Positions 1,312 to 21,747 are shown, counted from the first letter of the stretch. The stretch: 64,000 nucleotides of DNA from Amphiscolops sp. MND2022 (GCA_964187785.1 OZ076409.1:10666001-10730000), one strand, 5' to 3'. Program-made: numbers and translations. The notes: generated by a model from the letters alone, not told the origin.

Positions 1312-2517
1312 AAATCACGGAAGATTTGATTGGCAACCTACACAATGTGACAGAAAAAGTTCAACCAATTTCAACCAATGTAGCCATACAACGGCCTTGG
1401 TTCTGAATGTCAAATTCCCAATTTTCCAGATCAACAAAAATTCAGTATAATGAATATTGAACAATGTTTGTCTTCTATTAAATCAGAAAATAACTGACAA
1501 AATCATCACATTATTATAATTGGTTCGTCGATTTTTATTGATTTATTGCAAAAATTTCACCTTTTTACTCACGTTTCCGGCTTTAATTTTCAATTTACAA
1601 ATTTTGTAACCAGTGGATGATCAGCGAAATATAAGTAGTACGGCATGGAGCTTAATGATCCGGATACAGTTGATGAAGCCAAAACTGAGGATAGCCAATC
1701 CGGACTCCTGAAGAAACTTCACACAATGCTGCCCCCTCCCCCGGGCATAAAAACCTCAAAGATGTTGCTGAGTACAGGGCCGCATACTTGCCAGCAGAAC
1801 TCACACAACCCTCTGCACTTCTGGTGGCTCGATCCAGACCTCTGGCTCGACTCGGAGGCAGGCCTGGCTAGTGATTGTTCCAGCTGCCGGATGTTCCATC
1901 AAAAACTCAAGTAAATTGATTTTTTTCTGAAAATTTTTTATTTCTCGCAAGTGAAATAACGCCTAATTGCAAAAAAACGTTTGGAGTCCCAATGTCAAGG
2001 ATGAAAATGACAAAAAATGAGAAAAACTAATAGCTTTGGTTTTTAGCCCGATAGTTTTTGTTGACTTGCTTCTGAAAATCTGAAAGTTTTGAATTTGGAA
2101 AGCGTGCCGAACTTTTGTTGACTCATTAACGCGAGATGCCAGTCAGCAAATTAGACAAGTTGCACCAAAAATTCGAAGTACCTCATGACATGGATCGTGA
2201 AAGTCTATAGAAACTGGTCGAAAAGCAACTAACTGAGAATTGTGCGGTCGAAAACTCGTCGCATGAACAGAGAATTATCTCAGCCAAATGAAGTGCTGGT
2301 TTTGTGATCGTACTGTTATGAAGTTCTACATTATTATGACATATTCCAGGGTAGAGTGTGAAAGTGACACATTTCAGGCAGATATATAACTAAGAAGGAT
2401 ATGTTATGCGTATAGTAAGAAAACATCCCGAAAAAATTCGGAAAAATAATTCGAAAATTAGCACTCGGTAGTCCCTGTGAGTTCACTGCAATATTTCTCA
2501 GAGCTATCATTACGAGA

Positions 2518-3251
2518 TGTAACGACAAGCTCTCACCATTGTCGCCGTAACCATACGAGTTAGAGGAACACATGATATGGGTATTTGCCCGGGACAGGCG
2601 CCCATGACCATGAGCTCATTTTGCCTCTTTCGGGTAAAAACTGTCCCGTCAGAGGAGGATTCCGCTTCTTGTGAAGTGCTCGCCGGCCTGATCCAGTCTG
2701 TAATTGCTATCAGTAGTGCGCATTACGCTTTTTCTTCGAAACCAACACTTAGACAGCCTTTAAAAAATGCATATGGTGGAAAGGAAAAATCAAGTTTTAT
2801 CGAAGTTACACAGGAGATCGAAATGAGTAGCTCACGAGCTGTTACAACAAGAAAATACGAAAATTACTACATAATTAGCACTTTTGAGGCAGCAATTAGC
2901 CGGGGACACAAGCACGGATGCTTGGTCAAGCTAATTGACTCATTTTTGGTAATCACAGCGTCTTGTAACGCTTCGCTGAAGAAAGCACTGGTTGGAAGAA
3001 AGTTCAGTCCGTTTTGGCAGAAATTTGAGTCTTTTTCTGACAGTGGCCGTATTTTTCTGCAATTTTCTTGTTCGGTTGGGGTCTCTCTCGAGTCTTCTGC
3101 TCAATTTCTCTTCAATTCTGTGGGCAGGTACTTGAATAAAGACACGCTGCCATCTAGCGGAATATGACTCTTTAGTAGAGGAGATATAGTCCCTTGAACG
3201 AAATTTTCATCGAAATTTTCGAAATCCTGCACTCGATAGGTAATCGCTACA
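2518..3251 (-). repeat. 3' LTR of the giant Gypsy element
   Basis: TGTAACGA...TCGCTACA (7/8 inverted termini); matches 21014-21747 apart from two visible substitutions (ccatacgag/ccataagag, aatcctgc/aatcgtgc). Confidence 0.97.
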
Positions 3252-3261
3252 TACACTCCCC
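3252..3261 (-). promoter_or_regulatory. Short polypurine-tract-like sequence
   Basis: Minus strand GGGGAGTGTA immediately before the 3' LTR. Confidence 0.5.
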
Positions 3262-4267
3262 GGGGTCTAGTCTTGACGTCCCCGTCAAGTGTGGGTTGGC
3301 GTCATTGAGTCTGTACCCAGAGTCATCTGTGTCCCACTGAGGAGGTAGAGTGCACATCAAGTAGCGCTGGACGGTTCATTGGGACATCGTCAAGTTGGCC
3401 TCGTGGAAGTGTTTTTGACCCAGCGTTGCTGCATTTTGATCAAATCAATACAATTTTGTATACAAATCTTATACGGCAAGGTCATTATTTTTGTAGCCTG
3501 TCGTGAGCAATTCAGGCGTTAAAATTTCTTTTCGGCCATTCAAAAAAAAAAAATTTTTTTATTTGCCGTTAGTGTTAAAACTTGTTTTAAGGTCAACGAC
3601 CATCACATGACTGTTCGAAACTTATTTTCCGAAGCTCGGGAGCTTCGCACTGCTTGGCGTTTGATAAAAGTTCTTTTGGTAAGCAGTTGCCATAAAATCA
3701 ATCAGTTAGTACAGTCAATTTAAAATTTCTTTTGCGAGACTTACTCTCGATCCTATCAGGTAGCTCAAGAAAAACAATGGTCGAGGTTCATCAATCTTTT
3801 TATTCTATCCATTTCTCATCTCTCCCTTTTTGTTTCCTTTTCCTTCATCTTTTTCTTTTTGTCTTTTTCGACAATAGCAACAGTGTAGACAATAACTAGT
3901 AACTAAAAGGGTGTAATAGCACCGAAAATTTAGAGCACGGAGTGCGCACAGCGCATCCACATGTAGCATAAGGTAGCATGAAAAAGCACTAACTGCAAAC
4001 ACAAATTGCAAATTGAATATTGCATCTAACTAAGGCAAGGCAAAGACGCAGTTTCATGGTTGGGTTGCCGGTCCCAAAACGGGATAATAAGGAGGATGAA
4101 GCCCGGGGGCTTCATCTCCACTTGGAGATTTTTACCCATGACCAATTGGCATTTCCATAATCGAAGTTTAGCAACAACAGAGATTGAAACCATGAGATTT
4201 CGCAAAAGTTCATCTAGCATAAGACTATTGAAGTTGGAAATCGAATGACGACAAAGTTAGGTTTGTT

Positions 4268-7200
4268 TTATTGGGTGGCGGAGGAGTGACGCGCTCTGGG
4301 GGAGACGTCGGCCTTTGGTTGCAGTTCGGATAGAGATCCTCTTCGCGTATTTCCTCCTCGCAGGACTGGCCTTGGTTCGGCGCTGGCAGTTTCATGGGTC
4401 CTGGGAGCCGTATTTGAGCCACTAGGGCCATTTTCTGCGGCTACAGGAGTTGAGGCTTCTGGCGAATGTTCTTGCGCTGCATTGGTTGAGTCGCTAACAT
4501 TGGCAGAACTTGTGGTCGACGTGGAGATTGGGATCTGCACATCCAATCTACTGGCATTAAACAGGTGCGGCAGATCCAGCGGTCTATTGCGGGTGGCAAT
4601 GGGTCGTTTCTGCTTCGCACTGAGTTTCGGGCGTAGATCAGGTCGGCCCCAGAGCCCGCAGGCTCTGGACCAGTTGTCCCTGTTAGCATGTTCTATAATT
4701 TGTCTGGAGGCTTCCCATTCGGGTCCGAGGGGATCACTCAGCAATTCCATGACGTGGTAGCAAGTCTCCGCTGGCATGTCGCTTCCCATAGTAACCCTCG
4801 CCTCTGGATTCCAAACAGGCATTGTCAGTGGGGGAATGATCAAACCTTTTAGGCGCCCTTGGCGTTCCTCCAGGGTCCTTGACATCCACACGCCTAGTTT
4901 GTAGTGATCGCGATAGGCGTACTGTTCATCAAAGCCCTTCTCGACCATGCTGATTGGCTTAGCCCGGATATAACCGATGGGTCCTCGCCAGTACCTGGCT
5001 GGAAGCTTGATCATTTGAAAATTATACTCCTGGTTTGTGTGACCGCCCATGGTTTGCACGCATTCGGTCACGTACTTCCTGAGGTGTGCGAAACTCCAAT
5101 TGAATCGCTGTGGGATTCCGAGGTGATCTAGGGGAGAATTGTACCAATTCACCGGGCCGTATTCGCGAGGTAAAGGGCACGCCTTCTTTGTTCGGGCTTT
5201 GAGAATACCGGCCAGGTTTTCGTCTTGCTGCGTCTCATTCTTTATGGTGGTATACATGCGGGGTACTAGCAGAAACAGCCCACGTTCAAGCATCTGTTGA
5301 TAGTTGTGCGGTTTCACGTTCTTCAGATAAGTCAGGATGGATACTGTTAGTGTCTCCGAGGCCAGTCGCAGAGGCTTGGTGGGATAGCGAAGTATCCCGG
5401 TTGGGCCAAATATCGGAGTTAGCACGGGTGCTAACACCGGTACGAGATCTTCGACTTCAGCCAAAGTGAAATCTGCCAGCTGGTTAGGTGTCAAAAATCC
5501 AGCTACCTCGGTCACTAGCTGACGTCCGTCATATAATGGTTGGTGCTTATCCACCCCCACGAAAAGTCCCGAGGCAAAGACCAGACTGCAATATATCCAG
5601 TGATATAATGAAGTTGTCATGCGCTCCAGGTGAGCGGGATAATCCTGAGCGTCTTTTCGTTGTAACAGCTTGGCTAAGGCGGTGAGGCCTGAGATATTCC
5701 CTCGTGCAATCACCAGATATGAAAATAGCCATTCCAGATTACACTCGGTAACTAGGTCGGTCAATATCATCACTGGGCCAGCTACAAAGCGTTTCTGCCC
5801 GAAAGTGAGCATCAGTGCAAAGAGTTCGTTTACTTGCATGGTACCGATAATCTCGCTGATTTCGATCAACCAGTTTTCGTCTAAATCGAACTCGACTCGA
5901 ATAACATCGGGACTCCAACCCAATCCCAAACAGATGGCAAACTGGTCGGTTGACATCCCAAGCTCTTTTGCAATGTCTGCTACGGTGGTAGTTTGTAGCC
6001 GCTGGTACCAGGCGTCGTAGGTGCTGCTGAAGGCTTGGATTTCAGCCTGAGTTTCGCTCGTCAGTTTTGCAGCAATGTACTTCATTCCCACTGATAATTG
6101 ATCGATTGTGAGGTCCTTGGCAAATTGAACTCGCGGGATGGCTCGTTCTACTTCTCGGTCGCTGGGGACTTTGCTCATTATGGCAGTGACTTCTGCAAGA
6201 TCAGTTTTGATACAAGTCTTTCCACCGGAGGAGCGCGCGCGCTCTATCCAGTTATTCAGGCGGATTGCCTCGCATTCAGCCGTACTGGGCTCTGGGACTC
6301 GCCTTTCTCCGTCGTTGTTGAATACTAACAAGCCCATACGAGTGCCGTGATCAAAGTAGATGGCATCGTCGATTGTCAGCTGCGCGTTCCCTGTCTTTTC
6401 CACTGACTGTAGCACTTTAGACACTGAGGCAATATACCCCATGTAGGACAGCCAGGAGGGACGAAAGTCGTTGGAGCTAATCCGCATATTGGGCGCGCAG
6501 ATCGCAAAGTCTATTTCTCTACACTTGCAAACTTCTGTCACCATGTAGATAAATCTCTGCAAGGCGGGGGGCCATTGGCAGAAACCTGGGGGTGTCACGA
6601 ACAGGGCTGGCACCTTGAGTTTATCCTTTAAGATGTTTTGGGCTTTTTCCATGGCTCGGGCCATGTTCAATGCTGCATTGCGTACTGTTGTTCGCTGTGC
6701 TGGACTTGGATTCATAATTTCAACGTTCGCGATCTGGGCCATTAGTCCTTCACAGGCCATGTGATCGAAAACGTTGCTGATGATCACTCTGCGTGGGGGT
6801 GGCTCTTTGAAGGTTCCTGTCATCTCAGGGTCAAACATGGTGACCAACACTTCGGCCATCTCGGGAATACGTGACAGCGGTAGAGTAAAAACCATCACGT
6901 CTGACAGCACATTGTCAATGGGGACATTCTTGAGGAATGTTGAGTCTATAAGTAAGGCGAAGCGCGCACGCTGCAACCTTTCTTTTGGCATTGGTAGCTG
7001 GGCTTCGAGGTCACGGGCGTACCGTGGGTTGATCTCGAAGGTCTCTCCAGCGTTGAGGAAATATCGGTCAGCGAATTGCCCACGAAGGTCAATGTTGAGG
7101 GCATCCAAGTAATTGTCTTCCACGTTTGGCAGCATATTCATTGCCTTCCCTAGCCATGGCGGCTCATTGGTAGGAGTGTGGTCGGGGCGGATTGGACGAT

Positions 7201-8635
7201 TCATGAATACAGGTACATTCGCCTTCTTCAATTTCGCATGCTCTTCGTCATTCGGAGGACACATGTTCTTCTCAAATAGCCATTCGGGCGATACTATAAC
7301 TGCCGATTCCCAGATACGTCGGGAGTCCTTGGTGACCAGTGTGCCCTTTGTGTTTTGCATGGGACTCAGGTACGTCGGCTGTTTCGTAAAGGTCCTCTTA
7401 GTTGGGTGTTGAATCGCCTGTTTGCGGAGTGGGGTTCCAGTTGGACCACTGTTGGTTACCTTCAATCCTGGGTAGTCACCCATTATGTCCTCGACAGTTC
7501 GCTGGGATTCAGGGGTGCCTTGATAACCCACAGTTTGCTCCGTTTGTGGCTGTCTTGATGTGGACGGCTTAGGAGTCGCTCGTTGAGCCAGCGACTCGCG
7601 TGTTGTAGACTGCGTGGATGGTGGTTGCGGCAGTCCTTGTTGTTCGCCTGTTACGTCCGGTTGTGATTGGGGTGAGGGAAGCACGCATGCTTCCGACACT
7701 TTTGACTTCGTTTGGTCTGGCGCTTTGGAGGTTGTGGCCTTCTCGTTGGAAATCTTTTTGTCGGGTGGTGGCTTGCTCGAGGGGCTGTCACGGGCAGTCA
7801 ATGGTTGTTGAGTCTTCTTTGTTGGAGAAGGGTCGTTGCGCTTTCTGGAGGCAGGGCGGCTCTCTCCTCCCCCCTTTTGAGAAGAGCGGGAAGGCGAACG
7901 ACTGCGCTCCACCGTCACGGTGCGGGAGTGTCCTGGCTGTTCAGATTGAGTATTGATGTGAGGAATAGTGATGACATCTGGACGTGCTTGAGTTGAAGTC
8001 ACATTGTCGTTGCGAATAGTGACAGTGGGCAGAGCAATTCGGCGTAGTTCAGGCCAACACTGCTCCATGGATCGCATGAAATCATCGTAATTGGGGTTGG
8101 CAGCCACTGCTTGCAGTGCTGAGATGACTGCTTGCTCCGCCATTGATTGATTGGGCAAGTTAGGCACTATAGGAGCAGGAGTGCGCGCACGCACTACTGC
8201 TTGTGGTGTTGATGCAGGAGGTGGCGGTGGAGGTGGAGGCGGGCAAGAAGGGATCTGTAGAGATCTGGTTTGATGGACTCCGCCATTCGCAGGACTGTAT
8301 GAGATCGCCGCACGATCATCCGTGAAGTGATGCGTGAGATCATGGCCGTGCCACACTCCATCTTGGTATGTCATGGATCGTTGGAACCCAGGAAACCCTG
8401 AAGTAATTGATATTGTCAGCATTGGGGCTTGCAATTGTGATTCCATCTGGGCAATGATTGCCGCCACCCCGGCAACTGTAGCTGGCGACAGACCTTGGTC
8501 GAGTCTGTCTCGAATAAAGGCAATTTGTGGGGTACGTTGGACACGCGCAGTGTCATAGACGCGTTGCCCCAAGGCAGGAGAGTTATCTGTAGACCTTGGC
8601 GGGACGTTGTTGCTTCTATCGTTATCTTGGTTCAT
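4268..8635 (-). CDS. ORF3 of the giant element: 1455-aa protein with an SGNH/GDSL-hydrolase-like domain, function unknown
   Basis: Uninterrupted 4.4-kb ATG-TAA ORF between pol and the 3' LTR; P/S/T-rich N-terminus; motif order LLIDS / VFTLPLSRI / PRRVIISNVFDH / LFVTPP / DFRPS. Confidence 0.85.
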   Translation of the reverse strand: MNQDNDRSNNVPPRSTDNSPALGQRVYDTARVQRTPQIAFIRDRLDQGLSPATVAGVAAIIAQMESQLQAPMLTISITSGFPGFQRSMTYQDGVWHGHDLTHHFTDDRAAISYSPANGGVHQTRSLQIPSCPPPPPPPPPASTPQAVVRARTPAPIVPNLPNQSMAEQAVISALQAVAANPNYDDFMRSMEQCWPELRRIALPTVTIRNDNVTSTQARPDVITIPHINTQSEQPGHSRTVTVERSRSPSRSSQKGGGESRPASRKRNDPSPTKKTQQPLTARDSPSSKPPPDKKISNEKATTSKAPDQTKSKVSEACVLPSPQSQPDVTGEQQGLPQPPSTQSTTRESLAQRATPKPSTSRQPQTEQTVGYQGTPESQRTVEDIMGDYPGLKVTNSGPTGTPLRKQAIQHPTKRTFTKQPTYLSPMQNTKGTLVTKDSRRIWESAVIVSPEWLFEKNMCPPNDEEHAKLKKANVPVFMNRPIRPDHTPTNEPPWLGKAMNMLPNVEDNYLDALNIDLRGQFADRYFLNAGETFEINPRYARDLEAQLPMPKERLQRARFALLIDSTFLKNVPIDNVLSDVMVFTLPLSRIPEMAEVLVTMFDPEMTGTFKEPPPRRVIISNVFDHMACEGLMAQIANVEIMNPSPAQRTTVRNAALNMARAMEKAQNILKDKLKVPALFVTPPGFCQWPPALQRFIYMVTEVCKCREIDFAICAPNMRISSNDFRPSWLSYMGYIASVSKVLQSVEKTGNAQLTIDDAIYFDHGTRMGLLVFNNDGERRVPEPSTAECEAIRLNNWIERARSSGGKTCIKTDLAEVTAIMSKVPSDREVERAIPRVQFAKDLTIDQLSVGMKYIAAKLTSETQAEIQAFSSTYDAWYQRLQTTTVADIAKELGMSTDQFAICLGLGWSPDVIRVEFDLDENWLIEISEIIGTMQVNELFALMLTFGQKRFVAGPVMILTDLVTECNLEWLFSYLVIARGNISGLTALAKLLQRKDAQDYPAHLERMTTSLYHWIYCSLVFASGLFVGVDKHQPLYDGRQLVTEVAGFLTPNQLADFTLAEVEDLVPVLAPVLTPIFGPTGILRYPTKPLRLASETLTVSILTYLKNVKPHNYQQMLERGLFLLVPRMYTTIKNETQQDENLAGILKARTKKACPLPREYGPVNWYNSPLDHLGIPQRFNWSFAHLRKYVTECVQTMGGHTNQEYNFQMIKLPARYWRGPIGYIRAKPISMVEKGFDEQYAYRDHYKLGVWMSRTLEERQGRLKGLIIPPLTMPVWNPEARVTMGSDMPAETCYHVMELLSDPLGPEWEASRQIIEHANRDNWSRACGLWGRPDLRPKLSAKQKRPIATRNRPLDLPHLFNASRLDVQIPISTSTTSSANVSDSTNAAQEHSPEASTPVAAENGPSGSNTAPRTHETASAEPRPVLRGGNTRRGSLSELQPKADVSPRARHSSATQ

Positions 8636-8645
8636 GACGACAATT

Positions 8646-8660
8646 CTGAAAGAGTGCAGG
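8646..8660 (-). promoter_or_regulatory. Putative splice acceptor for ORF3 subgenomic mRNA
   Basis: Minus strand cctgcactctttcAG, then aattgtcgtcATG; the ATG is 10 nt downstream of the AG. Confidence 0.5.
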
Positions 8661-8858
8661 TCGATTGTAGCACACTTGATAGTAGGACAACACCATAGGT
8701 CATTTTAAGGGTAATACCAGGGAGAGTAATAGAATGTCACACACTAACATTAAAGAAAAGGTAACGTAACAGTTTCACATAAACTCCGTGTCGACTTATT
8801 AAACTTAATCGAGCGGATAAAAAACAAAAAAACAAAAAAAAGCGGACAAACGAAAGCT

Positions 8859-11800
8859 TTACGGAAAGCTAGCGACGCTTGCAATAGATACGTAAACGCG
8901 ATCGTGAAGAACGACGGTCAGGGGGGTGTCGGCGAATACGTCCATCAAACAGGTATAAAAATCAAAAAGATTACGTATTGGGCGTTCAGGATCAATGATG
9001 GCAAAGTGTACTTCCATCGCCTCCAAACGCTCGAGTAACATTTTTAAAAGATCAAGACATCCAAAGAGAATATCAGCGAGCATAGGGCAGCGAGGTGTAG
9101 CTCGTGTGATTAAAAGGTGGATAGTTTGAGGATGGCCGTCTATCAAAGATGTGGGTAGCGTTACAATATTGCCAACCTCCGGTCGAAGTTGAAAGATTGC
9201 ATCTGCACCATGCTCACGAATGACGTAACGAAGAGCGGCGGAACTAGTTTCCAGATTTGCGGGACAACATAAAACGATATGATGGGGAGTCTGCAGGAAG
9301 TCCGTATTGGCATACTGCACATAGTCAACCAATTGAGGTCTCACGGCTCCATGGTACACTAACTCTCGTCCGGGGTCTTTGGAGAGAGCATCGTCACATG
9401 CATTCGGGAGGAGGCCCTTGATTGCGCCCAAGTCTTGCCACACAGATCGCGGCAATGATTGATTATCAATATTAGCCCTGGACCATGTATCCAGTGCGTG
9501 CAGGGCCGATTGGAGCGATACAGGACTAGGAAATGAGTGTGTCCATTCGTCCAGGAATCTGATTCGTGAAAAATTCGATAAAACTGCTATAATAAGTTCC
9601 AGCCACCATTCAAACTTAATTTTACCACGATATAGGTCTATGGTGTGGAAACAAGTGATTCTATCAGGAGAGGCCATCGTTCGCAAACTCTCCAGACAGG
9701 TGATCAAGTTAGTGGGATGAACCAGGTCGGATGTTTGTTTGGCCGTAACTAGTAGCCACCAGTTGCTTGTAGGCTGATAAACGTCTCCTGGTTTTGCGGT
9801 GACGTTGTATTTGTCATACAAGAGGTCAGCAGGAATACAGCGTATCATTTGGATAGGCTCTCGCTCATAGTTGAAAGGACCAAAAGCAATATTTGTAGGC
9901 AAAGGGGGAACAGTGATGGGTAAGGTGAATTCCAAACCAACAAGATCATAGGTCCACTCCTTGAACCTTGGGCACGGGGCCTTTGCTATCGTAGAATCTT
10001 TCATTTTGGATAGGATATAGTCCACGGGATATGGAGTGTCGCTGCGTTGTAGCCCAGTATAGGTTTTCTCGGCTCGAATAACCAAACGGTCAACCATTCC
10101 GCTCGGAAGCGATTTCTCCTGTTCACGTGCTAGCAGGACTCCCTGGGATTTGATTGGGAAGCCCGCGTGGACCATGTAGTTACATTCGCAGTTTCGTAGG
10201 CCACATGTTCCGCAACGATATCTGGGAGTACGATTGTGTCGCAGTCCATAACGAGCGTTGGTTGATTCTGGCGGTGCTGCTTGATCTGAGGTAACCGCCG
10301 CGCTAGGGGCAGAAGAGTCAGTGTCCATAGATGGAGTGCTACGAACACGGGCAGGAGTGTTAGGCCTGGCGTGTGTTATACGAGGAGGTCTTCCTCTGGG
10401 ACGCCCTCTTTTGCGAGCGCCTCTAATAGCACCTCTCCGTTGGTGACCACGTGGCAACGAGGCTCGCGGCCTCGCTCTGCCTGGCGGACGTCCCCGGGGT
10501 CCACGCCCTCTAGGAGCATTGGAGAGTTTCGTGGTAGTTGCTACATCGTTGTTGGTGGGAACTGTCGCAGGGGGAATTGATCCCTTTTCGTTATTGGTTG
10601 TTGGTGTTTCAGCACCGTTGTCCTCTAGGGTTGGGTTGAGAACATTGTCATCGATTAGGGGCCAAATGGGAAAGTTACTCAACATATCCGTAAGAGATGG
10701 ATTTGTCAATAATGGGGCGGATGTACCGGTCAAAGAGGTGGCGGCTCTTTTGGTGGGTATGTGGATAGTAGGATTCGGGGCGATGTCCAATGCGTCGGGT
10801 ACTGCTTCATTCTCTGAGAACAGAGCCTCCATTGCAGGTAGTGGTGATATTGGCATTTCGGGAATAGGCGCAGGTTCATCTACATGTGATGACAAGATAG
10901 CACTTTCATCAGGACTAGCCCGAACACTCGATAGGAGTACATCAGAACGTTCATCGTCAGACTCAGTCGAAGAGTAGCCAAATTGTTGATAATGTAGGCG
11001 GCTGCCACCTGCGCGCATGTGTGTGCGTAACCGTGTGTCCATCCAATGTCTTTGTCGAGAAGGCAAAGAGGCATTGCTGGCTTCTGAAATTGGTTCCTCT
11101 ACACGGTAAGAAGGTTGCGAAGCATCGTCTCTCACCTCCTCATGGGATTGTTCTGGATCAGGGTCCATGATAATAGCAACCTCGCCGTTATGCGCAGGAA
11201 CAGCTGCCCATTCTGTTGGACCACCATGATGCGGTTTCAATCGTTCGAAATGCACTTTCTGACCAGTGTCAAGTATGTAGACACGTCCCTCTTGTAGCAC
11301 TCGTGCTACCTTGTGAGGACCACGCCACGCTCTCATCAATTTAGGAGATCCCTTTTGAGGAATGTATCGGCAGAATACCCAAACAGGTTCGCCCACTTCG
11401 TAGGCTTTAGCACGAATTGCTCTGTCGTACTTCAATTTTTGTCGTTGCTGGGCTTGATGCGTGTTGCGACGGACTAAGTCATGAATCTCTTGTTGTCGAG
11501 CCAGCACATGTTCCACATAGGCTTCGTGTGATTCGAATGACTGAGTTGCAAATTCTGGATACAAGAAAGTCAGGGGTATAGCTTTTTCCATGCCTCTGGT
11601 CAGCATATACGGGGAGAATCCAGTAGTGGCATGACGTGTGGAGTTGTATGCACCCATAACTTCATCTAGGTACTGATCCCAGTCACGCATTCGTCTAGAG
11701 CAGAATACACGCAGTAGGGTGAGTAGCGTTCGGTTTTGTCGCTCTACCAACCCTTGAGTCCTGGGGTGGCCAGCAGTTGAGGTTACTTTGGTCACTTGGG

Positions 11801-13328
11801 CTGCTTTCATAAACTCAGCAGATACTGCCGCGGTGAAATTGGGAGCATTGTCTGACTGCATCCTCGTCGGTGTTCCATGGCGAGCAAACCACTTCTGCAA
11901 CAACAACTTTGAAGTGGTCGCTGCATCATACTCATCGTGGTTGCACGGCACAGCTTCTGCGAGCTTAGAGAAATGATCGATAATAACCAAGATCCCTGTG
12001 TTACCATTATCAGAGGGACAAATTTTCATGTGGTCATATTGGACTAGCTCGTTGAAGTAACCGCTTTGGATATTTTTCAAGTGGAAGCGTACATCACCAG
12101 GCTTGTCACGTACTTGTTGACAAGTGATACATTGGCTGACGTATTGTCCAATGGTGCGGCGGATGCCTGGCCAAGTGTGGCGCTCTTGAATTCTGGCCAA
12201 GACTTTTGCGATGCCCTGATGTCCCATCGCGTCGTGGGCCTTGAATAGTATCTCATGCTGATACAATTGTGGCATCACAATCATGCAGGGGCGTTCATGC
12301 AAAGCTCTTTGACTTTTGGAGTATTTTACACACAAAATCCCGTTGGCGTTTATCAGTAGAAGGTTCTTCTTCTGTTTGTGGTAGTTTTTGGCGAAGGCGC
12401 GTACATTTTCCGGAAAGACGTCATTATCTATTGATTCTTGCATTACCAATTTCTTGATAGCCAATATATGGACGTCACGGTTTTGTGCTAGTAGTAGATC
12501 CTTCAACCCATGGACTGTGTTAGCATGTTCATGCAGTTCCATTGATATGCTGTTTACCACAAACGCGGCTTGTTTTACGTGCTCTGGTGCAGTGCTAGTT
12601 GCTTGCTTTTCCGTCAATGGGTAAGTGGTTCTTGATGGTACGTTAGCAGCATGCGTGGGGAGTAAATAGTCTCGTTGATATTCCTCGGTCAGTTCCAACC
12701 AATCCTCAGGATATTCTGGATAAAGTTCGGCAGGCAGTGTCAATTCTGGTTTTGGCAATGTAGGTAGGGGCGCTCTCATGGCTTCGTCGCGTATGGTCGC
12801 ATTTCGTTTGCTTCGTCCGCTCCTTCGCGTGGGAACGGCAACTGTGGTTTCGGGTGAACTTTGGCTAGCCAACCTCTGCAAGTGTGCAGGCAATTCTGGG
12901 TGATTTGGTATCACACGTCCGTGGACATCGAACCATGGGGCTAGCGGGAGTTTGTTATATTCTTCCTGTGATAGGAAATCCCATTTGTCTGCAATTGCGG
13001 GTAAACCCTTTAGTTGCTTTTCGTGTTTTTTGTAATCATTTGTTCGTTTGCTAAGACCGTCAGCATTTCGATGTTGCGTTCTGGGTCGGTGCTCGATACT
13101 GAAGTGATATTTTTCAAGAGCCATAATCCATCGACCGATAATCGCCTGATCCATCGAATATGTTTTTAGCCAGGATAGGGCCTGATTATCTACCCTCAGT
13201 GTGAACTTTCGTGGACAGAGATAACTGTGGTTTTTCAAGATGAAATAGTATGCAGCATACATTTCCAATTTTGGGGCTCCATACTTTGCTTGCGTAGCAG
13301 TTAATTTTTTGCTTCCGAATACAATCGG
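8859..13328 (-). CDS. RNase H C-part, integrase and ~800-aa C-terminal extension (AT-hooks, Cys cluster, 2 macrodomain-like units)
   Basis: DNQAL, NADGLS; HDAMGHQG...CITC zinc finger; YDHM / SDNAPNF / GLVERQN DDE triad; WRGPHKV (GPY/F-like); RGRP repeats; TARG1-like segments at the C-terminus. Confidence 0.92.
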   Translation of the reverse strand, partial: PIVFGSKKLTATQAKYGAPKLEMYAAYYFILKNHSYLCPRKFTLRVDNQALSWLKTYSMDQAIIGRWIMALEKYHFSIEHRPRTQHRNADGLSKRTNDYKKHEKQLKGLPAIADKWDFLSQEEYNKLPLAPWFDVHGRVIPNHPELPAHLQRLASQSSPETTVAVPTRRSGRSKRNATIRDEAMRAPLPTLPKPELTLPAELYPEYPEDWLELTEEYQRDYLLPTHAANVPSRTTYPLTEKQATSTAPEHVKQAAFVVNSISMELHEHANTVHGLKDLLLAQNRDVHILAIKKLVMQESIDNDVFPENVRAFAKNYHKQKKNLLLINANGILCVKYSKSQRALHERPCMIVMPQLYQHEILFKAHDAMGHQGIAKVLARIQERHTWPGIRRTIGQYVSQCITCQQVRDKPGDVRFHLKNIQSGYFNELVQYDHMKICPSDNGNTGILVIIDHFSKLAEAVPCNHDEYDAATTSKLLLQKWFARHGTPTRMQSDNAPNFTAAVSAEFMKAAQVTKVTSTAGHPRTQGLVERQNRTLLTLLRVFCSRRMRDWDQYLDEVMGAYNSTRHATTGFSPYMLTRGMEKAIPLTFLYPEFATQSFESHEAYVEHVLARQQEIHDLVRRNTHQAQQRQKLKYDRAIRAKAYEVGEPVWVFCRYIPQKGSPKLMRAWRGPHKVARVLQEGRVYILDTGQKVHFERLKPHHGGPTEWAAVPAHNGEVAIIMDPDPEQSHEEVRDDASQPSYRVEEPISEASNASLPSRQRHWMDTRLRTHMRAGGSRLHYQQFGYSSTESDDERSDVLLSSVRASPDESAILSSHVDEPAPIPEMPISPLPAMEALFSENEAVPDALDIAPNPTIHIPTKRAATSLTGTSAPLLTNPSLTDMLSNFPIWPLIDDNVLNPTLEDNGAETPTTNNEKGSIPPATVPTNNDVATTTKLSNAPRGRGPRGRPPGRARPRASLPRGHQRRGAIRGARKRGRPRGRPPRITHARPNTPARVRSTPSMDTDSSAPSAAVTSDQAAPPESTNARYGLRHNRTPRYRCGTCGLRNCECNYMVHAGFPIKSQGVLLAREQEKSLPSGMVDRLVIRAEKTYTGLQRSDTPYPVDYILSKMKDSTIAKAPCPRFKEWTYDLVGLEFTLPITVPPLPTNIAFGPFNYEREPIQMIRCIPADLLYDKYNVTAKPGDVYQPTSNWWLLVTAKQTSDLVHPTNLITCLESLRTMASPDRITCFHTIDLYRGKIKFEWWLELIIAVLSNFSRIRFLDEWTHSFPSPVSLQSALHALDTWSRANIDNQSLPRSVWQDLGAIKGLLPNACDDALSKDPGRELVYHGAVRPQLVDYVQYANTDFLQTPHHIVLCCPANLETSSAALRYVIREHGADAIFQLRPEVGNIVTLPTSLIDGHPQTIHLLITRATPRCPMLADILFGCLDLLKMLLERLEAMEVHFAIIDPERPIRNLFDFYTCLMDVFADTPLTVVLHDRVYVSIASVASFP

Positions 13329-14105
13329 TCACAGTTTGCGACTCTCAGGTGGTCCTTGCCATTGGTGCAGAATACCCGATATAGCTACACCACTAGCATC
13401 TGTGTCGAGAACAAATTCGCCTTCAGTGTCAGGTTGCGCCAGAGCAGTGGCTTCCATTAGTGCCACTTTGATGCTGTTGAAGGCTCGCTGCTGCTCCTCC
13501 CCCCATAAAAATGAAGAGGCTCCTCCCGTCATCGCGTGTAAAGGGGCAACTAGTTTTGCATGCCACGGGATAAAATCCCGATAGTAGTTGGCAAAACCCA
13601 AGAAACTCTGCAATTCAGTCTTGGTTCGCGGGATATCCCATTCTTTCAGTTTGGTGACAGCTTTTGGATCTGGCTTGATACCATCTGCGGATACTACCCG
13701 GCCCAAATATTTGATCTCCGATTTCATGAAGTCACACTTGGAGACTCTCATTTTGAACCCGGCCTCACGCAGGCATTGGAATACTTCGCGTAGTCTATCC
13801 ATGTGATCCTCGATGGTCTCGGTAGCAATCACAATGTCATCGATGTAGGCCATAACCATACTTCCTTCACGGTTCACTATTCTTTGTAGCGCTCGCGCTA
13901 TTGCCCGTTGAAATGTTGCTGATGCGTTACACATACCAAAAGGCATACGCCGCCACTCAAATAACCCAAGTTCACAAGGGAAGGCAGTCTTTTGACGATC
14001 GGCTTTTCGGATAGGAATTTGCCAGAATGCCCACGCCAAGTCAATACTGGTATAGATTTTGGCTTTGCCCAATCGGGATAGACTCTCATCGATGCGTGGC
14101 AAGGG
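13329..14105 (-). CDS. Reverse transcriptase core and start of RNase H
   Basis: IDLAWAFWQI, MPFGMCNASATFQR, YIDD (13836-13847), YLG, FLGFANYYRDFI, LDTDASG. Confidence 0.95.
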   Translation of the reverse strand, partial: PLPRIDESLSRLGKAKIYTSIDLAWAFWQIPIRKADRQKTAFPCELGLFEWRRMPFGMCNASATFQRAIARALQRIVNREGSMVMAYIDDIVIATETIEDHMDRLREVFQCLREAGFKMRVSKCDFMKSEIKYLGRVVSADGIKPDPKAVTKLKEWDIPRTKTELQSFLGFANYYRDFIPWHAKLVAPLHAMTGGASSFLWGEEQQRAFNSIKVALMEATALAQPDTEGEFVLDTDASGVAISGILHQWQGPPESRKL

Positions 14106-17100
14106 CTAAGCGTCTTTGATAGTCACTTCATTAAGTGGCCGAAAATCACAACAGAATCGCAATTCACCACTCTTCTTTTTGACCATAACAATTCCACTCG
14201 CCCAAGGGGATAAGGAAGGTTGTATCATTCCCAAAGCTAGCAAGTCACGAACTTCTTGGTTAGCACGTTCTGCCTTGTCAGGCGACATTCGTCTTGCACC
14301 TTCGCGGTGGGGTACAGCCCCTGGCTCTACTTCCACCGAGTGCTTAGCGATTTTACACTTGCCAATGTCGGCTTTGAATTTCATAAACAAATCATCAAAT
14401 TCGTTCAAAAGTTTACTAAGCGTGTCGCTGGCGGTCGATCCCCACAAACCGCGTACCTCGTCGAGTTGTGCTTCCGGGCCCGGTATCGGAGCCATTAACG
14501 CCGGATCGGTTCGTTTTTTTACTTCGCGCTCGGACAAGCCTAGTTCTGACGGTTCGGTAGAGGACAAAAACTCAAATTCAGATGAAGAACTATATTCAGA
14601 AGAAGAATCAAGGTTCATCTGTTCGTAAACTTTACAAACATAATTTGCATTTGACTGCTGAGTTTCACTTGATTGTCCGGGGACAATTTGGGGGATGGCT
14701 TTATGAACCATCGTTACGGGTACCGCGGTTCCTAAAAGGGTGCCCTTTTTAATCCGCTGCACGTTGCTGGTAAGATTTCCTAAACTGACGTAAAGGAAGC
14801 CAGTCTCCCCCACGGTCGCCACGGTGTCCTCTAAAAAGATGGCATTTTTAAACATTCGGTTAGGTGTTAGAAAATTGATTAGCACGGTCCGAAACATGAA
14901 AGGTTCTAAGTTGTCTACAAGCAATTTAGCGCGTAGTATTGCGCGTTCAAAAGGTTGCAACACTACGTCCTGTGCAATCGCAACCGACGAATTGAGTGAT
15001 TCGTTACTTACTTGTGTGTGGACATGGTACCACACTGGTTCAGAGGGAGCTCGGACAATGACTTTCATCGCGGTTAAATCTACCAAGACTTGATAAGCTC
15101 TTAGGAAGTTTCTGCCCAGGAGGAAGTCTTCCACTCCCATAGCGTCATCGACTACCACGAAGTTAGTTTCCAATTCGTAGCCTCCCAATTGGAACTTGAC
15201 TTTCTCCGCTAGACCAAAAGTCTTAATCGTCTTTCCATTCGCGGCATATAAGTCAATACCATAAGGTCGTAAGAGTGTCCCAGTGCGCACAGCGACTCGA
15301 TTGTAGGCTGAGAAGGTGAGGATGGACACTCCTGATCCAGTGTCTATCAGACCACGTAATGGCACGGGAGCAGCATCGGGAACCACGAATGAAACTACGA
15401 GCGACGCACGCTCATCGATTCTCGCTTCACCAGTTGGTTCTTGAGCATCAATGTTATAGCAGCGCAGCTCCTGCGGTCCCAAGCAGATTCCAGGAGGAAA
15501 CGCGTCAGTAATGATAGTGGCACCAAAACGCATGTCATCACCATCTATGCAAACTTTGACTGGAATCGGAGAATAGGCATGATACGTCGAAGTGACACCT
15601 TTTACTTGCCATTCTTCCGGTTGGGGCAGGGTCAATTGTCGGCAATTCTCGTTTGCGGTTATCTCGTCTATCAGGGCGTCTATGGTGAGTTCTGGGCGGG
15701 TTTCTCTCTCAATCGCCAATAGTAATCGGACAGACATGATAGTGCGTCCCGAGGGATCAAAAGTAGTTGGCTCCGGGTTCGTCTGGATTTGGATTTTGCC
15801 ACATGTGACGGTAAGGGGTGTCGTCACGTGAGCGGCTTCAGCAGGGCGAAGCATGAGTACCATTTCGCTGTCACTCATTGTTTGAGAAGTAGATGGCTGT
15901 TCAGCCCAGAGGCTGTAGGCCAAATCCTCATGTACTGGAACATTTTGGCATTGTGATGCAGAGTGTTCGGTCATGCCACAATTTACACAGAATACGGGGC
16001 CAGAACATGCAGAGGCCACATTATTCTCGCATAAGTTTACTCGCTCTTCGGGTGCAGCGCGAGCCGCTGGTTTCCTTGCTAGGTCTCGACTTGGGCATTC
16101 TCTTGCGAAGTGACCTGGTAGTCCACAGTTGAAGCATGCTCCTTGGGGAATCACTCTCGCTGGTTGCTGTTGTGCAGGAGCCTGTTTTACCGATACAGGG
16201 CCTGGTGGAGCCATCTGGGGTTTAGTCTCTCGTTGTCCTTGGTTTGGAGGTAGTACGTTTTGCGGTAGGCCTGGTGCTGGATGAACCAATTTTCCTGGCA
16301 CGAAAGGGTGAGGCCTCGATCTCATTGCATACCTTGGGTCGTAAGGTTTTGATGTGTTTGGGCGATGCCGTTGCAATTGTCTCGTGGTGAACCTTAGGGA
16401 TTCTACAGTTGGTGGTTCGGTCAGATATGCCTCTGCAGCGTACACCACGGCCAACTCTTGTCGCAGCGTCGGGTCGTTAATGCCATCTATAAAACGTTGC
16501 AGGATCTCATAACGACGCGTAGTGATAGGCTCGTCTGGGAAACCTTGGGTGCGCAGACCTTCTAATGCGTCCAAGAATTGCATCCAATCCTCTTTTTCCT
16601 GTTGGACACGAGACATGAAGGTTTGCCTGACGTGCATGCGATTTCCACCGGTTCCAAATCTGCTGGCCAAGAGAGAGAATACCTTGTCGGGCTCGTCTCG
16701 TTCAGGTTCAGATTTGTTGATTATATAATTTCTTGCCTCTCCTTCCAGGTGATCGATGATAGCCCAGGCTCTGTCGATCTTTGGGGATTTTGCATGTACC
16801 CTTTCTAGAAATCGCTTCATCACTGGGAGCCATCCATCGACAGAACCATCTTTTGTGCCTTTGTATACCGTAGGGCGCACCCTAGTTTGATCTCGATTAG
16901 CAATCAGCGGCGCTAGTTCCTTGGACATGGCTTTGGATATTGCCTCGGTAAACCTAAGTTGCTCCGGTGATATAGGCGCTTCTTCACTGATGGCTGGTGG
17001 CGGGATACTGCTGCCTCGCGTTGAGTTGACAGAGTCATCGGTGTTCTCGGGGAGAGTCACTTCTCGACGTCGAGTGCTGCTGGCGCATGGGTTGCCCGGG

Positions 17101-18626
17101 GGTAATTCGTCGTTCGCGGTTTGGAATTCTGCAGCTGATTCTCCCAAAGTTGCATTTGCTGTTTGGAAGGTGCTGGTGACTTCAGTTAGCACGTTTGTGC
17201 GTGTGGGCTCTCGCAGGTCGCTGATACCCATGCTTGAAGTGTCGATAGTTATCATCTCGCATGTTGGTTCTTTCTTGTGAGTTTTGGTCGTGGGTGGAAT
17301 ATTTTTTGTTGATACCGCGGATGGGATAAATTTCGTCGATGTTGACGCAGCTTCTCCATTTGAGACCAGAGTTTGTGGCAGGGGCGCGTACCTGGCCAAA
17401 TGTTGTTTAGAGCCAGATGGGTTTGTTGAAATCGTCACACTCTCTTTTGGCTTGAGGGAGACGCTTTTCATGGGTTTTGGCAGTGATATATCAGTGTCTT
17501 GCAGCAACTCTTTGATGGTGTTGCTTACTGGTGCGGGTTGAGGTTGGATATTCTTCAACATAGTGCCCATTGCTTGTATTTGTGAACATACCTCTTGCAG
17601 TTGAGCTTCCATGCGTACCTCTCTTTCGGTCACCATGTCCTTTATTTCGGCCATTCGATAACCCATGGCATCCATTCGGGCTGCCTGAATTTCATGTCCT
17701 TGCGCTTGTCGCTCAGTCGATGTTCGCAGTTCAGTTTGTACGGCTTCTATCTCCTCCATTATTGACTGATGCTCTCTATCGCACCTTGCTTTACGCTCAA
17801 ACAGTTGTGAAGCAGCTTGCTTCACGCCTATCTGGGCATCTAATAGAGCTTTGCGTGCTTTCGCTGCTTCATGTACGGCTCGATATGCTGAAGATCGGGC
17901 AGATGCAGCTTTTGATGAGGGTGAGGATGAGCGCGAGTCGCCATGAGGTCCGGTAGTACCAGTCTGTGCTAGTAGAGCTGGAGGCCGTACTTGCTTACCC
18001 TTCCCAGATGCTCGGGGGGCCGTAGCTTCTCGAAGACGTGTCCTGGCATAGTTCATACCCCCAACATAAGACATTTGTTGTAATATCTCTGCCGTGTTTG
18101 CAGTGCTCTCGCTGGCCATGCTGGGAGCTTTGAGTCGTCCAGTGGCATTCAAGCAACTCATTTCAGTTTCTTCCTCAGCGTTTGTCCTGTTGGAGTTGGG
18201 CCATGTTCCTGCTTCGTCAGTACCGAAAGGTGTAACGGCTACTTTGGTCAGTTCTTGTAACCATTTGGACGTGTGCGCCTGACTTCCTGTTTCGTCTGCT
18301 GAACCTCCGATATCATCGGTAGCCTTGGCGATTGGCTTAGCCTGATACTCCTCCGATGCGTCGTCTGACATAGGGTCTGAAAAATCGGGTTCCATAACGA
18401 AACTGTCGTCAGTTGGCCAATCTTCCTCCCTGGGGTCTGAGGTCAGGTCTGATATTGCACTGAGATTTGTCTCGCACCCCGTTGGGTCTGGTGTCTTTGA
18501 TGCTTCAGTGCATCGCGAGGTGTCCTTCCTCCCCCCTTTTGAATGATTAGAGCGGCGCTGGGTGTTCGTGCGGCTTAATGTTCTCGTTATAGAAATCCAA
18601 AGGTTACGCAAACTGTTGGGTTTCAT
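14106..18626 (-). CDS. Gag (coiled coil, capsid, 2 CCHC knuckles), pseudo-protease, protease, dUTPase-like domain and RT N-terminus
   Basis: CFNCGLPGHFAREC and CVNCGMTEHSASQC; LIDTGSGVS...FLLGRNFL; SPWASGIVMVKKKSGELRFCCDFRPLN. Confidence 0.92.
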   Translation of the reverse strand: MKPNSLRNLWISITRTLSRTNTQRRSNHSKGGRKDTSRCTEASKTPDPTGCETNLSAISDLTSDPREEDWPTDDSFVMEPDFSDPMSDDASEEYQAKPIAKATDDIGGSADETGSQAHTSKWLQELTKVAVTPFGTDEAGTWPNSNRTNAEEETEMSCLNATGRLKAPSMASESTANTAEILQQMSYVGGMNYARTRLREATAPRASGKGKQVRPPALLAQTGTTGPHGDSRSSSPSSKAASARSSAYRAVHEAAKARKALLDAQIGVKQAASQLFERKARCDREHQSIMEEIEAVQTELRTSTERQAQGHEIQAARMDAMGYRMAEIKDMVTEREVRMEAQLQEVCSQIQAMGTMLKNIQPQPAPVSNTIKELLQDTDISLPKPMKSVSLKPKESVTISTNPSGSKQHLARYAPLPQTLVSNGEAASTSTKFIPSAVSTKNIPPTTKTHKKEPTCEMITIDTSSMGISDLREPTRTNVLTEVTSTFQTANATLGESAAEFQTANDELPPGNPCASSTRRREVTLPENTDDSVNSTRGSSIPPPAISEEAPISPEQLRFTEAISKAMSKELAPLIANRDQTRVRPTVYKGTKDGSVDGWLPVMKRFLERVHAKSPKIDRAWAIIDHLEGEARNYIINKSEPERDEPDKVFSLLASRFGTGGNRMHVRQTFMSRVQQEKEDWMQFLDALEGLRTQGFPDEPITTRRYEILQRFIDGINDPTLRQELAVVYAAEAYLTEPPTVESLRFTTRQLQRHRPNTSKPYDPRYAMRSRPHPFVPGKLVHPAPGLPQNVLPPNQGQRETKPQMAPPGPVSVKQAPAQQQPARVIPQGACFNCGLPGHFARECPSRDLARKPAARAAPEERVNLCENNVASACSGPVFCVNCGMTEHSASQCQNVPVHEDLAYSLWAEQPSTSQTMSDSEMVLMLRPAEAAHVTTPLTVTCGKIQIQTNPEPTTFDPSGRTIMSVRLLLAIERETRPELTIDALIDEITANENCRQLTLPQPEEWQVKGVTSTYHAYSPIPVKVCIDGDDMRFGATIITDAFPPGICLGPQELRCYNIDAQEPTGEARIDERASLVVSFVVPDAAPVPLRGLIDTGSGVSILTFSAYNRVAVRTGTLLRPYGIDLYAANGKTIKTFGLAEKVKFQLGGYELETNFVVVDDAMGVEDFLLGRNFLRAYQVLVDLTAMKVIVRAPSEPVWYHVHTQVSNESLNSSVAIAQDVVLQPFERAILRAKLLVDNLEPFMFRTVLINFLTPNRMFKNAIFLEDTVATVGETGFLYVSLGNLTSNVQRIKKGTLLGTAVPVTMVHKAIPQIVPGQSSETQQSNANYVCKVYEQMNLDSSSEYSSSSEFEFLSSTEPSELGLSEREVKKRTDPALMAPIPGPEAQLDEVRGLWGSTASDTLSKLLNEFDDLFMKFKADIGKCKIAKHSVEVEPGAVPHREGARRMSPDKAERANQEVRDLLALGMIQPSLSPWASGIVMVKKKSGELRFCCDFRPLNEVTIKDA

Positions 18627-20979: not shown

Positions 20980-20997
20980 ATCCCTCTGTGGTCGCCA
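20980..20997 (-). promoter_or_regulatory. Primer-binding site, probably tRNA-Arg
   Basis: Minus strand TGGCGACCACAGAGGGAT, complementary to a tRNA 3' end ...ATCCCTCTGTGGTCGCCA, which resembles metazoan tRNA-Arg ends; begins 16 nt from the LTR. Confidence 0.75.
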
Positions 20998-21013
20998 AAA
21001 AATGATGTCTCTA

Positions 21014-21747
21014 TGTAACGACAAGCTCTCACCATTGTCGCCGTAACCATAAGAGTTAGAGGAACACATGATATGGGTATTTGCCCGGGACAGGCGCCCA
21101 TGACCATGAGCTCATTTTGCCTCTTTCGGGTAAAAACTGTCCCGTCAGAGGAGGATTCCGCTTCTTGTGAAGTGCTCGCCGGCCTGATCCAGTCTGTAAT
21201 TGCTATCAGTAGTGCGCATTACGCTTTTTCTTCGAAACCAACACTTAGACAGCCTTTAAAAAATGCATATGGTGGAAAGGAAAAATCAAGTTTTATCGAA
21301 GTTACACAGGAGATCGAAATGAGTAGCTCACGAGCTGTTACAACAAGAAAATACGAAAATTACTACATAATTAGCACTTTTGAGGCAGCAATTAGCCGGG
21401 GACACAAGCACGGATGCTTGGTCAAGCTAATTGACTCATTTTTGGTAATCACAGCGTCTTGTAACGCTTCGCTGAAGAAAGCACTGGTTGGAAGAAAGTT
21501 CAGTCCGTTTTGGCAGAAATTTGAGTCTTTTTCTGACAGTGGCCGTATTTTTCTGCAATTTTCTTGTTCGGTTGGGGTCTCTCTCGAGTCTTCTGCTCAA
21601 TTTCTCTTCAATTCTGTGGGCAGGTACTTGAATAAAGACACGCTGCCATCTAGCGGAATATGACTCTTTAGTAGAGGAGATATAGTCCCTTGAACGAAAT
21701 TTTCATCGAAATTTTCGAAATCGTGCACTCGATAGGTAATCGCTACA
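21014..21747 (-). repeat. 5' LTR of the giant Gypsy element
   Basis: Direct repeat of 2518-3251; lies beside the PBS and upstream of gag on the minus strand. Confidence 0.97.

Follow-up and report, generated by a model that had tools for sequence, protein, structure and literature searches.

The third open reading frame (ORF3) of a Ty3/gypsy-type long terminal repeat (LTR) retrotransposon, located in a 64,000-nucleotide stretch of the genome of Amphiscolops sp. MND2022 (GCA_964187785.1 OZ076409.1:10666001-10730000, referred to here as the window), is an integral gene of its element and is under strong purifying selection. We favour, at roughly even odds (a probability of about 0.5), a reading in which ORF3 is a functional accessory gene of this young and very abundant gypsy-type family, encoding an SGNH-derived, non-hydrolytic binding protein and not an envelope protein (Env). 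The extra ORFs of LTR retrotransposons are usually named env by position alone, and rough hydropathy and motif scans detect no Env features in ORF3. The fold predicted for its core would instead link it to the SGNH modules of the ORF1 proteins of long interspersed nuclear elements (LINEs) and of rotifer LTR elements, with the catalytic base replaced family-wide.

Conservation of ORF3 within the family

An earlier note on the window had described a 1455-amino acid (aa) ORF in the env position, and this ORF is indeed present on the minus strand. Its layout is given below, where pN/pS is the ratio of nonsynonymous to synonymous differences among copies.

4268-8635, minus strand: ORF3, 1455 aa plus stop, the third ORF of the element
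8646-8656, minus strand: CACTCTTTCAG, a pyrimidine tract and AG that resemble a splice acceptor, 10 nucleotides (nt) before the ORF3 ATG
8036-8578, minus strand: N-terminal region, aa 20-200, with WxGHDLTHxF and EQAVIxALQAVA conserved in an 11-protein alignment, and the poly-Pro run; pN/pS 0.05 (12 copies)
7304-8035, minus strand: linker, aa 201-444, low-complexity, basic and S/P/T/Q-rich (P+S+T+Q fraction 0.48, K+R fraction 0.15), of a length that varies between subfamilies
6311-6970, minus strand: putative SGNH-hydrolase-like alpha/beta domain, aa 556-775 (AlphaFold model, VIA-align and residue columns), with key residues D564-S565-T566, N621, D624-H625, P682-P683-G684, C713-A-P-N716 and R725-P726
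5546-6136, minus strand: predicted all-helical domain, aa 834-1030, predicted local distance difference test (pLDDT) >90 for most of its length
4526-5545, minus strand: conserved region, aa 1031-1370, modelled with low confidence; pN/pS 0.025
4271-4525, minus strand: S/T/P-rich tail, aa 1371-1455, the least constrained part; pN/pS 0.37

The order of motifs reported by the earlier note (FALLIDS, VFTLPLSRIPEM, PRRVIISNVFDH, ALFVTPP, and NDFRPS) is found at aa 559-727, equivalent to positions 6455-6961 of the window, and the poly-Pro run that it mentioned consists of ten prolines at about aa 132-141. Its description of a long, disordered P/S/T/Q-rich N-terminus holds for aa 201-444, 48% of which are P, S, T, or Q, but is too simple for aa ~20-200, which contain segments conserved between subfamilies of only 44% identity.

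A search of the window's own genome (1.07 Gb) reveals at least three diverged subfamilies and thousands of candidate copies. Subfamily A, to which the window's copy belongs, is represented by 7023 first-look ORF3 candidates, with the 32 that were scored all full-length, 98-100% identical, and in 30 cases without a stop. The subfamily C type (P0007), which shares ~44% aa identity with A, is likewise largely open, with 29 of 33 scored copies lacking a stop. For subfamily B (~84% aa identity to A), queried with P0006, 25 of the 39 scored matches lack a stop, and the weaker matches of this search, at ~80% identity, probably belong to other subfamilies. Given so many near-identical copies in a genome of 1.07 Gb, the family is probably a major genome component.

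Comparison of 12 subfamily A copies (66 pairs) gives a pS of 0.081 and a pN of 0.0062, and thus a pN/pS of 0.076, with pN biased downward because these copies are the best protein matches. Constraint is unevenly distributed along the protein: pN/pS has its lowest values of 0.009 in aa 445-555, 0.025 in aa 1031-1370, and 0.046 in the SGNH-like part, and reaches its maximum of 0.37 in the C-terminal tail. At 8%, synonymous divergence greatly exceeds the 0.27% divergence between the LTRs of the window's copy (2 mismatches in 735 bp), indicating that most of these differences arose in replicating lineages. Between subfamilies A and B, nonsynonymous divergence (dN) is 0.13 at a nucleotide identity of 0.729, whilst synonymous sites are saturated by the NG86 method and the 4-fold sites of identical residues differ at 0.586. 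Subfamily C copies are younger, differing at 4-43 positions in 4.3 kb; one of the seven (L016) was dropped from the positional comparison, its in-frame indels shifting the register, and the ratio of 0.835 obtained for subfamily C is an artefact of this copy.

Relatives of ORF3 extend beyond these subfamilies. A complete HMMER search of 1.84 billion representatives returned 453 proteins at E <= 0.001, of 26-99% identity and mostly short fragments. Among the more distant relatives is P0210, a protein of 1187 aa that aligns to aa 539-1170 of ORF3 at 26% identity (E 1e-46); the SGNH-like part and the helical part thus stay linked even in distant lineages. The earlier note had named three outcomes that would speak against its interpretation, namely the absence of a predicted SGNH fold, neutral evolution of ORF3 among copies, and capture of a host gene by this copy alone. 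An SGNH-like fold is predicted, ORF3 does not evolve neutrally, and it is carried by several subfamilies and many copies.

The same note had contrasted an intact ORF3 with a pol that is not intact. The gag-pol frame of the window's copy, which is free of frameshifts, is indeed interrupted by two in-frame stop codons (14106-14108 and 13329-13331); however, this damage is confined to the window's copy. When the 257-aa piece of reverse transcriptase lying between the two stops was used as a query, gag-pol was open over 3290 aa or more in 68 of the 148 copies scored (a hand count). As gag-pol is intact in other copies, the contrast says nothing special about ORF3.

ORF3 is a separate ORF downstream of pol in all three subfamilies, beginning 223 nt (A), 208 nt (B), and 295 nt (C) past the stop of pol, and in the window's copy, with its 223-nt spacer, the frame of ORF3 differs from that of pol. 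A YYYYYAG-like motif lies 10-12 nt before the ORF3 ATG in A, B, and C, though A and B are saturated at synonymous sites. We infer that this motif could serve as the splice acceptor of a subgenomic mRNA, as is the case for env genes, and ORF3 would then probably be translated from a spliced subgenomic RNA.

Fold, active site, and proposed function of the ORF3 product

The AlphaFold (AF2) model of aa 445-800, built from a 73-row alignment, has a pLDDT of 72.7 and a predicted template modelling score of 0.75, with strands and helices alternating from aa 580 onwards. When this model was compared with 48,161 representative chains using VIA-align, which is independent of Foldseek, the top match was the PAF acetylhydrolase 1bwp_A (Z 8.2, root-mean-square deviation (rmsd) 4.1, 184 residues aligned), and ~40 of the 50 listed chains are, by title, GDSL/SGNH esterases, lipases, acetylhydrolases, or O-acetyltransferases. 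One of the remaining chains is clearly different (formyl-THF synthetase), and the others carry uninformative titles. In the Foldseek comparison, only GDSL lipases and esterases, and one designed scaffold (9hi5), reach a probability of about 0.8-0.9, with re-alignment of the top 1000 by VIA-align placing 1bwq at Z 8.5 (rmsd 3.9, 178 of 212 residues), or Z 8.3 after the low-confidence stretches are trimmed, TesA at Z 7.0-7.4, and the OSK domain of Oskar at Z 6.7-6.9. The model is thus a three-layer alpha/beta/alpha fold that can be superposed on solved SGNH hydrolases, at a moderate score. On the weight of a near-exclusively SGNH match list together with the residue pattern described below, the aa 445-800 core is likely to have an SGNH-like fold, and the SGNH-like core proposed by the earlier note is therefore borne out at the level of the predicted fold.

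Conserved residues of the ORF3 family lie directly after the modelled strands, at the positions where the SGNH blocks are found:

After expected strand 1 (block I): D564 in 42 of 44 sequences, S565 in 37 of 44, T566 in 41 of 44
Block II position, L587: Leu in 42 of 48, Gly in 0 of 48
After strand 3 (block III): N621 in 47 of 50, D624 and H625 in 46 of 49 each
After strand 4: P682 in 44 of 50, P683 in 42 of 49, G684 in 44 of 49
After strand 5 (block V): C-A-P-N716, then R725 in 42 of 50 (His in 1 of 50) and P726 in 41 of 50; D723 in 31 of 50

The block I serine, expected after Asp or Asn, is present as DS(T/S) in all 11 covering sequences of a cross-lineage alignment, in a part of the model that is of low confidence. 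The oxyanion Asn of block III corresponds to N621 in all aligned lineages, with the Asp that usually follows displaced to N+3 (D624). The oxyanion Gly of block II is absent from the window's lineage, and is seen only in the distant lineage of P0210 and P0220 as MPGST, a motif comparable to the MPGDTT of 1YZF block II; in the same block table, from the portion of PMC10792757 available to us, block V of thioesterase I reads D-x-I-H-P-N. In place of the Asp-x-x-His of block V, all 12 covering sequences have Arg at the His position, including those of lineages at 26-35% identity, with the D-F-R-P-S of ORF3 placing this Arg before the conserved Pro, as in IHPN, with one residue fewer after the Asp. 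The residue counts and the cross-lineage alignment agree with the earlier note, which had seen the block I Ser retained and an Arg where the block V His was expected. As judged from the aligned residues, the SGNH-like domain of the window's lineage is one in which S and N are kept and G and H are lost, and canonical esterase activity of the ORF3 product (ORF3p) is unlikely. Retention of the nucleophile/oxyanion zone (the Asp-Ser of block I and the Asn of block III) together with Arg at the position of the base suggests that the domain binds an anionic group in place of carrying out canonical hydrolysis.

Several results weigh against an SGNH-derived, non-hydrolytic binder under strong constraint, in addition to the downward bias of pN. 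No match at E <= 10 to the GDSL Pfam models (Lipase_GDSL and Lipase_GDSL_2) was obtained for any of the 73 aligned family members, nor did the 73-sequence alignment return any match at E <= 10 in a sequence-profile search of the PDB. Alignment of the ORF3 core with esterases from the same genome using hhalign gave probabilities of only 0.24% (nine ORFs) and 0.29% (one ORF), neither of which is significant. The model has a pLDDT of <50 over aa 547-577, a segment that includes FALLIDST of block I, Foldseek finds nothing at E <= 0.001 for the aa 445-800 model, and a Z of ~8 is modest, lying barely above the level at which the tool speaks of a common arrangement. The equivalence of Arg with the His of block V is based on motif order, not on inspected coordinates, and needs an Asp-to-base spacing shorter by one residue. 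Finally, a non-canonical mode of catalysis would also be consistent with the near-invariance of Ser565 and with the D624-H625 pair.

The sequence comparisons were negative throughout. The window's ORF3 (P0001) has no Pfam family at E <= 0.1, ten of its relatives have no relevant match to Pfam, none of the 50 matches of a genome search with PF13472 is an ORF3 copy, and a feature search of the ESM Atlas with aa 470-800 gave a best score of 0.76, which is below any useful level. In the nine-ORF hhalign comparison, itself not significant, the sole aligned stretch places block I and block II in register. ORF3 therefore does not qualify as a retroelement-borne GDSL protein in the usual sense, which calls for recognisable GDSL sequence with intact S, G, N, and H.

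These negatives, along with Foldseek E-values that all exceed 0.05, Z scores near the background of the tool, and the poorly modelled block I, would be expected if the SGNH resemblance were that of a generic three-layer alpha/beta sandwich, of unrelated origin and function. We regard this as decidedly unlikely, with one superfamily, in place of other Rossmann-like or flavodoxin-like folds, dominating the best 50 chains, the conserved residues following strands at the positions of SGNH blocks I, III, and V, and a PGST motif resembling block II occurring in a distant lineage.

An active esterase, lipase, or acyltransferase, in which Ser565 would work with a non-canonical base (His625, or with the assistance of Arg) to modify membrane lipids for particle exit or entry, is essentially what the earlier note had in mind. 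A dead enzyme would not usually keep Ser565, Asp564, and Asn621 nearly invariant, most lineages conserve D624-H625 (46 of 49 each), retroelement esterases with both activity and liposome binding are known (PMC3905857, available in part), and a canonical GDSL esterase follows the integrase in a second gypsy family of this genome. However, His is present at block V in only 1 of 50 sequences, the Gly of block II is absent from the window's lineage (0 of 48), a rough scan finds no transmembrane or secretion signal, and His625 is replaced by Asp in the P0210/P0220 lineage, so that there is no family-wide substitute base. Together these points make an active enzyme quite unlikely.

With regard to membranes, the earlier note had pointed to hydrophobic stretches past the SGNH-like domain and suggested a lipid- or membrane-interacting alternative to Env for cell-to-cell movement. 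Both stretches exist, as LFALMLTFG (aa 938-946) and WIYCSLVFASGLFVGV (aa 1013-1028), but their 19-residue Kyte-Doolittle values of 1.17 and 1.54 lie under the usual membrane threshold of 1.6, and they fall in or at the edge of a globular all-helical domain that AlphaFold models with confidence. The only 19-residue window above 1.6 is the Pro-rich segment aa 1064-1082 (1.73, four prolines), and this rough hydropathy scan found no convincing transmembrane segment in ORF3. The absence of a signal peptide, noted earlier, agrees with a strongly hydrophilic N-terminus in the same rough scan (mean Kyte-Doolittle of -1.8 over the first 25 residues), and a motif scan found no furin-type site (R-x-K/R-R). 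The signal peptide, membrane anchor, and protease cleavage site of an Env are thus all absent as far as rough hydropathy and motif scans go, and the suggested role in cell-to-cell movement gains no support. An envelope-like membrane fusion protein would suit the position of ORF3 downstream of pol and the splice-acceptor-like motif before its ATG; however, the hydrophilic N-terminus, the lack of a cleavage site, a sole stretch above 1.6 that is Pro-rich, and the modelling of the region past the SGNH-like domain as a globular helical domain leave this reading highly improbable. The ORF3 product, of about 160 kDa, is thus probably soluble and is not read here as an Env.

The helical domain itself is modelled at aa ~834-1024, with pLDDT mostly >90 and low confidence elsewhere in the aa 790-1380 model. 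Comparison of this model with the PDB using Foldseek gave a best E of 0.37, although domains in models of more than 400 residues can be missed, and comparison with BFVD gave a best E of 3.5e-3 at a probability of 0.23 and a TM of 0.08. The wide VIA-align comparison of the same model, which again exceeds 400 residues, gave a best Z of 3.9 that involves a single helix only, so that no credible structural relative emerged from the comparisons of this long model, and the ESM Atlas feature search with aa 800-1370 returned no usable match.

In the reading that we prefer, the former active-site pocket would no longer hydrolyse esters by the canonical Ser-His-Asp mechanism, and would instead bind an anionic ligand, for instance the head group of a phospholipid or a phosphate of a nucleic acid. 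ORF3p would then act in the cytoplasm, in the assembly, membrane association, or trafficking of the ribonucleoprotein (RNP) or virus-like particle of the element, a role analogous to that proposed for the esterase domain of CR1/L2 ORF1p. A protein that acts on host factors or RNA instead of lipids, either as an Oskar-like scaffold of RNP granules or as an antagonist of host silencing, appears to us rather unlikely. The long, basic low-complexity linker and the Arg in the former active site would suit such a protein, as would the presence among the structural matches (Z 6.7-6.9) of OSK, an SGNH-like RNA-binding domain that lacks the catalytic serine (PMC10792757, seen in excerpt). In the other direction, OSK ranks below many true esterases, and, according to the available part of PMC3905857, no binding to oligo(A) RNA was observed for the ZfL2-1 esterase. 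More tentatively still than our preferred reading, and with the odds against it, ORF3p may define a new class of LTR accessory protein, an SGNH pseudo-esterase combining an Arg-for-His anion pocket with a novel-fold helical domain and a basic disordered linker, which would organise RNPs at membranes or granules as Oskar does in germ plasm.

Anatomy of the host element

The element that carries ORF3 has the following features:

2517-21747, minus strand: single Ty3/gypsy-type LTR retrotransposon, 19.2 kb
21013-21747, minus strand: 5' LTR, 735 bp, with TG...CA ends
18627-21012, minus strand: non-coding leader of 2.4 kb between the 5' LTR and the gag ATG, without a long ORF
8859-18737, minus strand: gag-pol in one frame of 3292 codons, comprising a CCHC knuckle, protease, reverse transcriptase, RNase H, and integrase, then an extension of ~770 aa
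2517-3251, minus strand: 3' LTR, 735 bp, with TG...CA ends, identical to the 5' LTR at 733 of 735 bases

Between the LTRs, the Pfam matches of gag-pol follow the order of Ty3/gypsy elements, from the CCHC knuckle of gag through aspartic protease, reverse transcriptase, and RNase H to the zinc and core domains of integrase. ORF3 is followed by ~1 kb of 3' untranslated sequence. The flanks of the element have only TCT in common, which at 3 nt is too short to count as a target-site duplication. A candidate primer-binding site at 20980-20997 (minus strand) begins with TGG about 17 nt past the 5' LTR; at 3256-3261, 4 nt ahead of the 3' LTR, is a short run of purines, GGGGAG. The leader (18627-21012) is unusually long and of lower GC content (about 0.39), and is a constant part of the family, with all 40 scored genome matches full-length at 94-100% identity.

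The start of gag (16950-18626, minus strand) consists of about 560 aa that are Ser/Thr-rich and helical and have no Pfam match; the capsid-like part, which is conserved, and the CCHC knuckle follow. At the other end, the extension of pol past integrase (8862-11168, minus strand, ~770 aa) comprises an acidic and Ser-rich stretch, RGRP repeats, which we take to resemble AT-hooks, and then a region without a Pfam match. Subfamilies A and B both conserve the C-terminal end of pol, and C does so in part; comparison of the pol C-terminal extension with ORF3 shows no similarity (best E 0.18).

A 196-aa ORF without a Pfam match lies within the 3' LTR on the opposite strand (2577-3167, plus strand), and the 5' LTR has an open stretch of 214 aa on that same strand; the 196-aa ORF is probably not a gene. 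Just outside the element are identical direct repeats of at least 300 nt, at 23680-23979 and 24989-25288, which are 1309 nt apart. Further along, a second and degraded gypsy-type element (28911-33239, minus strand) has its protease, RNase H, and integrase core on separate ORFs.

Comparison with known SGNH modules of retroelements

The precedents cited by the earlier note exist, in the form of the GDSL ORF3 of Vesta elements (PMC5408684) and the esterase of CR1/L2 ORF1p (PMC3905857), both papers being available to us in part. A limited literature search, which was not targeted to the host's families and included the accessible part of a review (PMC6431247), found no description of a comparable ORF3.

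The best structural match, the catalytic subunit of PAF acetylhydrolase Ib (1bwp and 1bwq, Z 8.2-8.5, 178-184 of 212 residues aligned), differs from ORF3 in being a canonical Ser-His-Asp enzyme and shares only 10-11% identity with it. The OSK domain of Drosophila Oskar (5a4a and 5cd9) is alike in having an SGNH-like fold without a working triad, in a protein with a long disordered linker, and is used for binding, which makes it the precedent for the conversion of an SGNH fold into a binder. In contrast to ORF3, which keeps the Ser and lacks the His, OSK has Asp in place of the Ser, and its Z scores are lower (6.7-6.9).

Amongst retroelements, ZfL2-1 ORF1p, from a CR1/L2-type non-LTR element, contains an esterase (PDB 4c1b) that is active and whose binding to anionic liposomes does not depend on the active site (PMC3905857, in part). 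For the function proposed for ORF3, this esterase offers the nearest analogy. It shares with ORF3 a retroelement-borne SGNH fold, which in ZfL2-1 is proposed to target the RNP to anionic membranes. Unlike ORF3, the ZfL2-1 domain is part of a LINE ORF1, lies behind a coiled coil, and is catalytically active, and 4c1b is not among the 50 chains listed in either VIA-align comparison of the aa 445-800 model. In the host's own genome, the search with PF13472 also matched multi-copy ORFs of ~300 aa (L033-L039), in which the N-terminal part is helical and a GDSL-type esterase comes after it, with GDS or GSS as block I and G-x-N as block III; from their sequence they look like CR1/L2-type ORF1 proteins.

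The same genome also contains a second gypsy family (L029-L032 and L041) with a canonical GDSL esterase ORF of ~320 aa directly after integrase, in frame with it in one copy:

L029:1438-2406, plus strand: canonical GDSL esterase copy
L032:124-1599, plus strand: canonical GDSL esterase copy; further copies in L030, L031, and L041

This esterase, which provides the best matches of the genome search with PF13472 (Lipase_GDSL_2), has the motifs GDSIT, GFSGIT, GTND, and DGIHPN, and matches Lipase_GDSL_2 (E 4.9e-14) and OSK (E 2.1e-9), whilst the integrase of the family that bears it is 29% identical to that of the window's element. If the tentative proposal of a new class of accessory protein is true, the two gypsy families together would indicate that retroelements acquire SGNH modules repeatedly, and then convert enzymes into binders.

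Athena-L (Terminon) retroelements carry GDSL derivatives that lack catalytic residues (PMC5408684, in part), and ORF3 resembles these in being a retroelement-borne SGNH derivative minus catalytic residues. The Athena-L derivatives, however, belong to Penelope-like elements of rotifers.

A parallel in organisation is offered by the Vesta LTR elements of bdelloid rotifers (Rodriguez et al. 2017), in which a GDSL esterase/lipase ORF3 is argued to be auxiliary and not Env, and is described in the available portion of that paper as having neither a coiled-coil nor a transmembrane domain (PMC5408684). As in Vesta, the element described here is gypsy-like and has an additional ORF 3' of pol with an SGNH-type module. 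However, the Vesta ORFs are recognisable as GDSL proteins, have their invariant residues intact, and, as far as the same portion reports, show no significant departure from neutrality within the genome, whereas ORF3 has 1455 aa, is undetectable by GDSL profiles, has Arg at the His position, carries an added helical domain, and is under strong purifying selection. As GDSL ORF3s in rotifer LTR elements and degenerate Athena-L derivatives have been described (PMC5408684, in part), ORF3 can be regarded as a divergent variant of a kind already known. It offers a testable case for whether the SGNH domains of retroelements serve in binding or in catalysis, together with a second domain, the helical one, to characterise.

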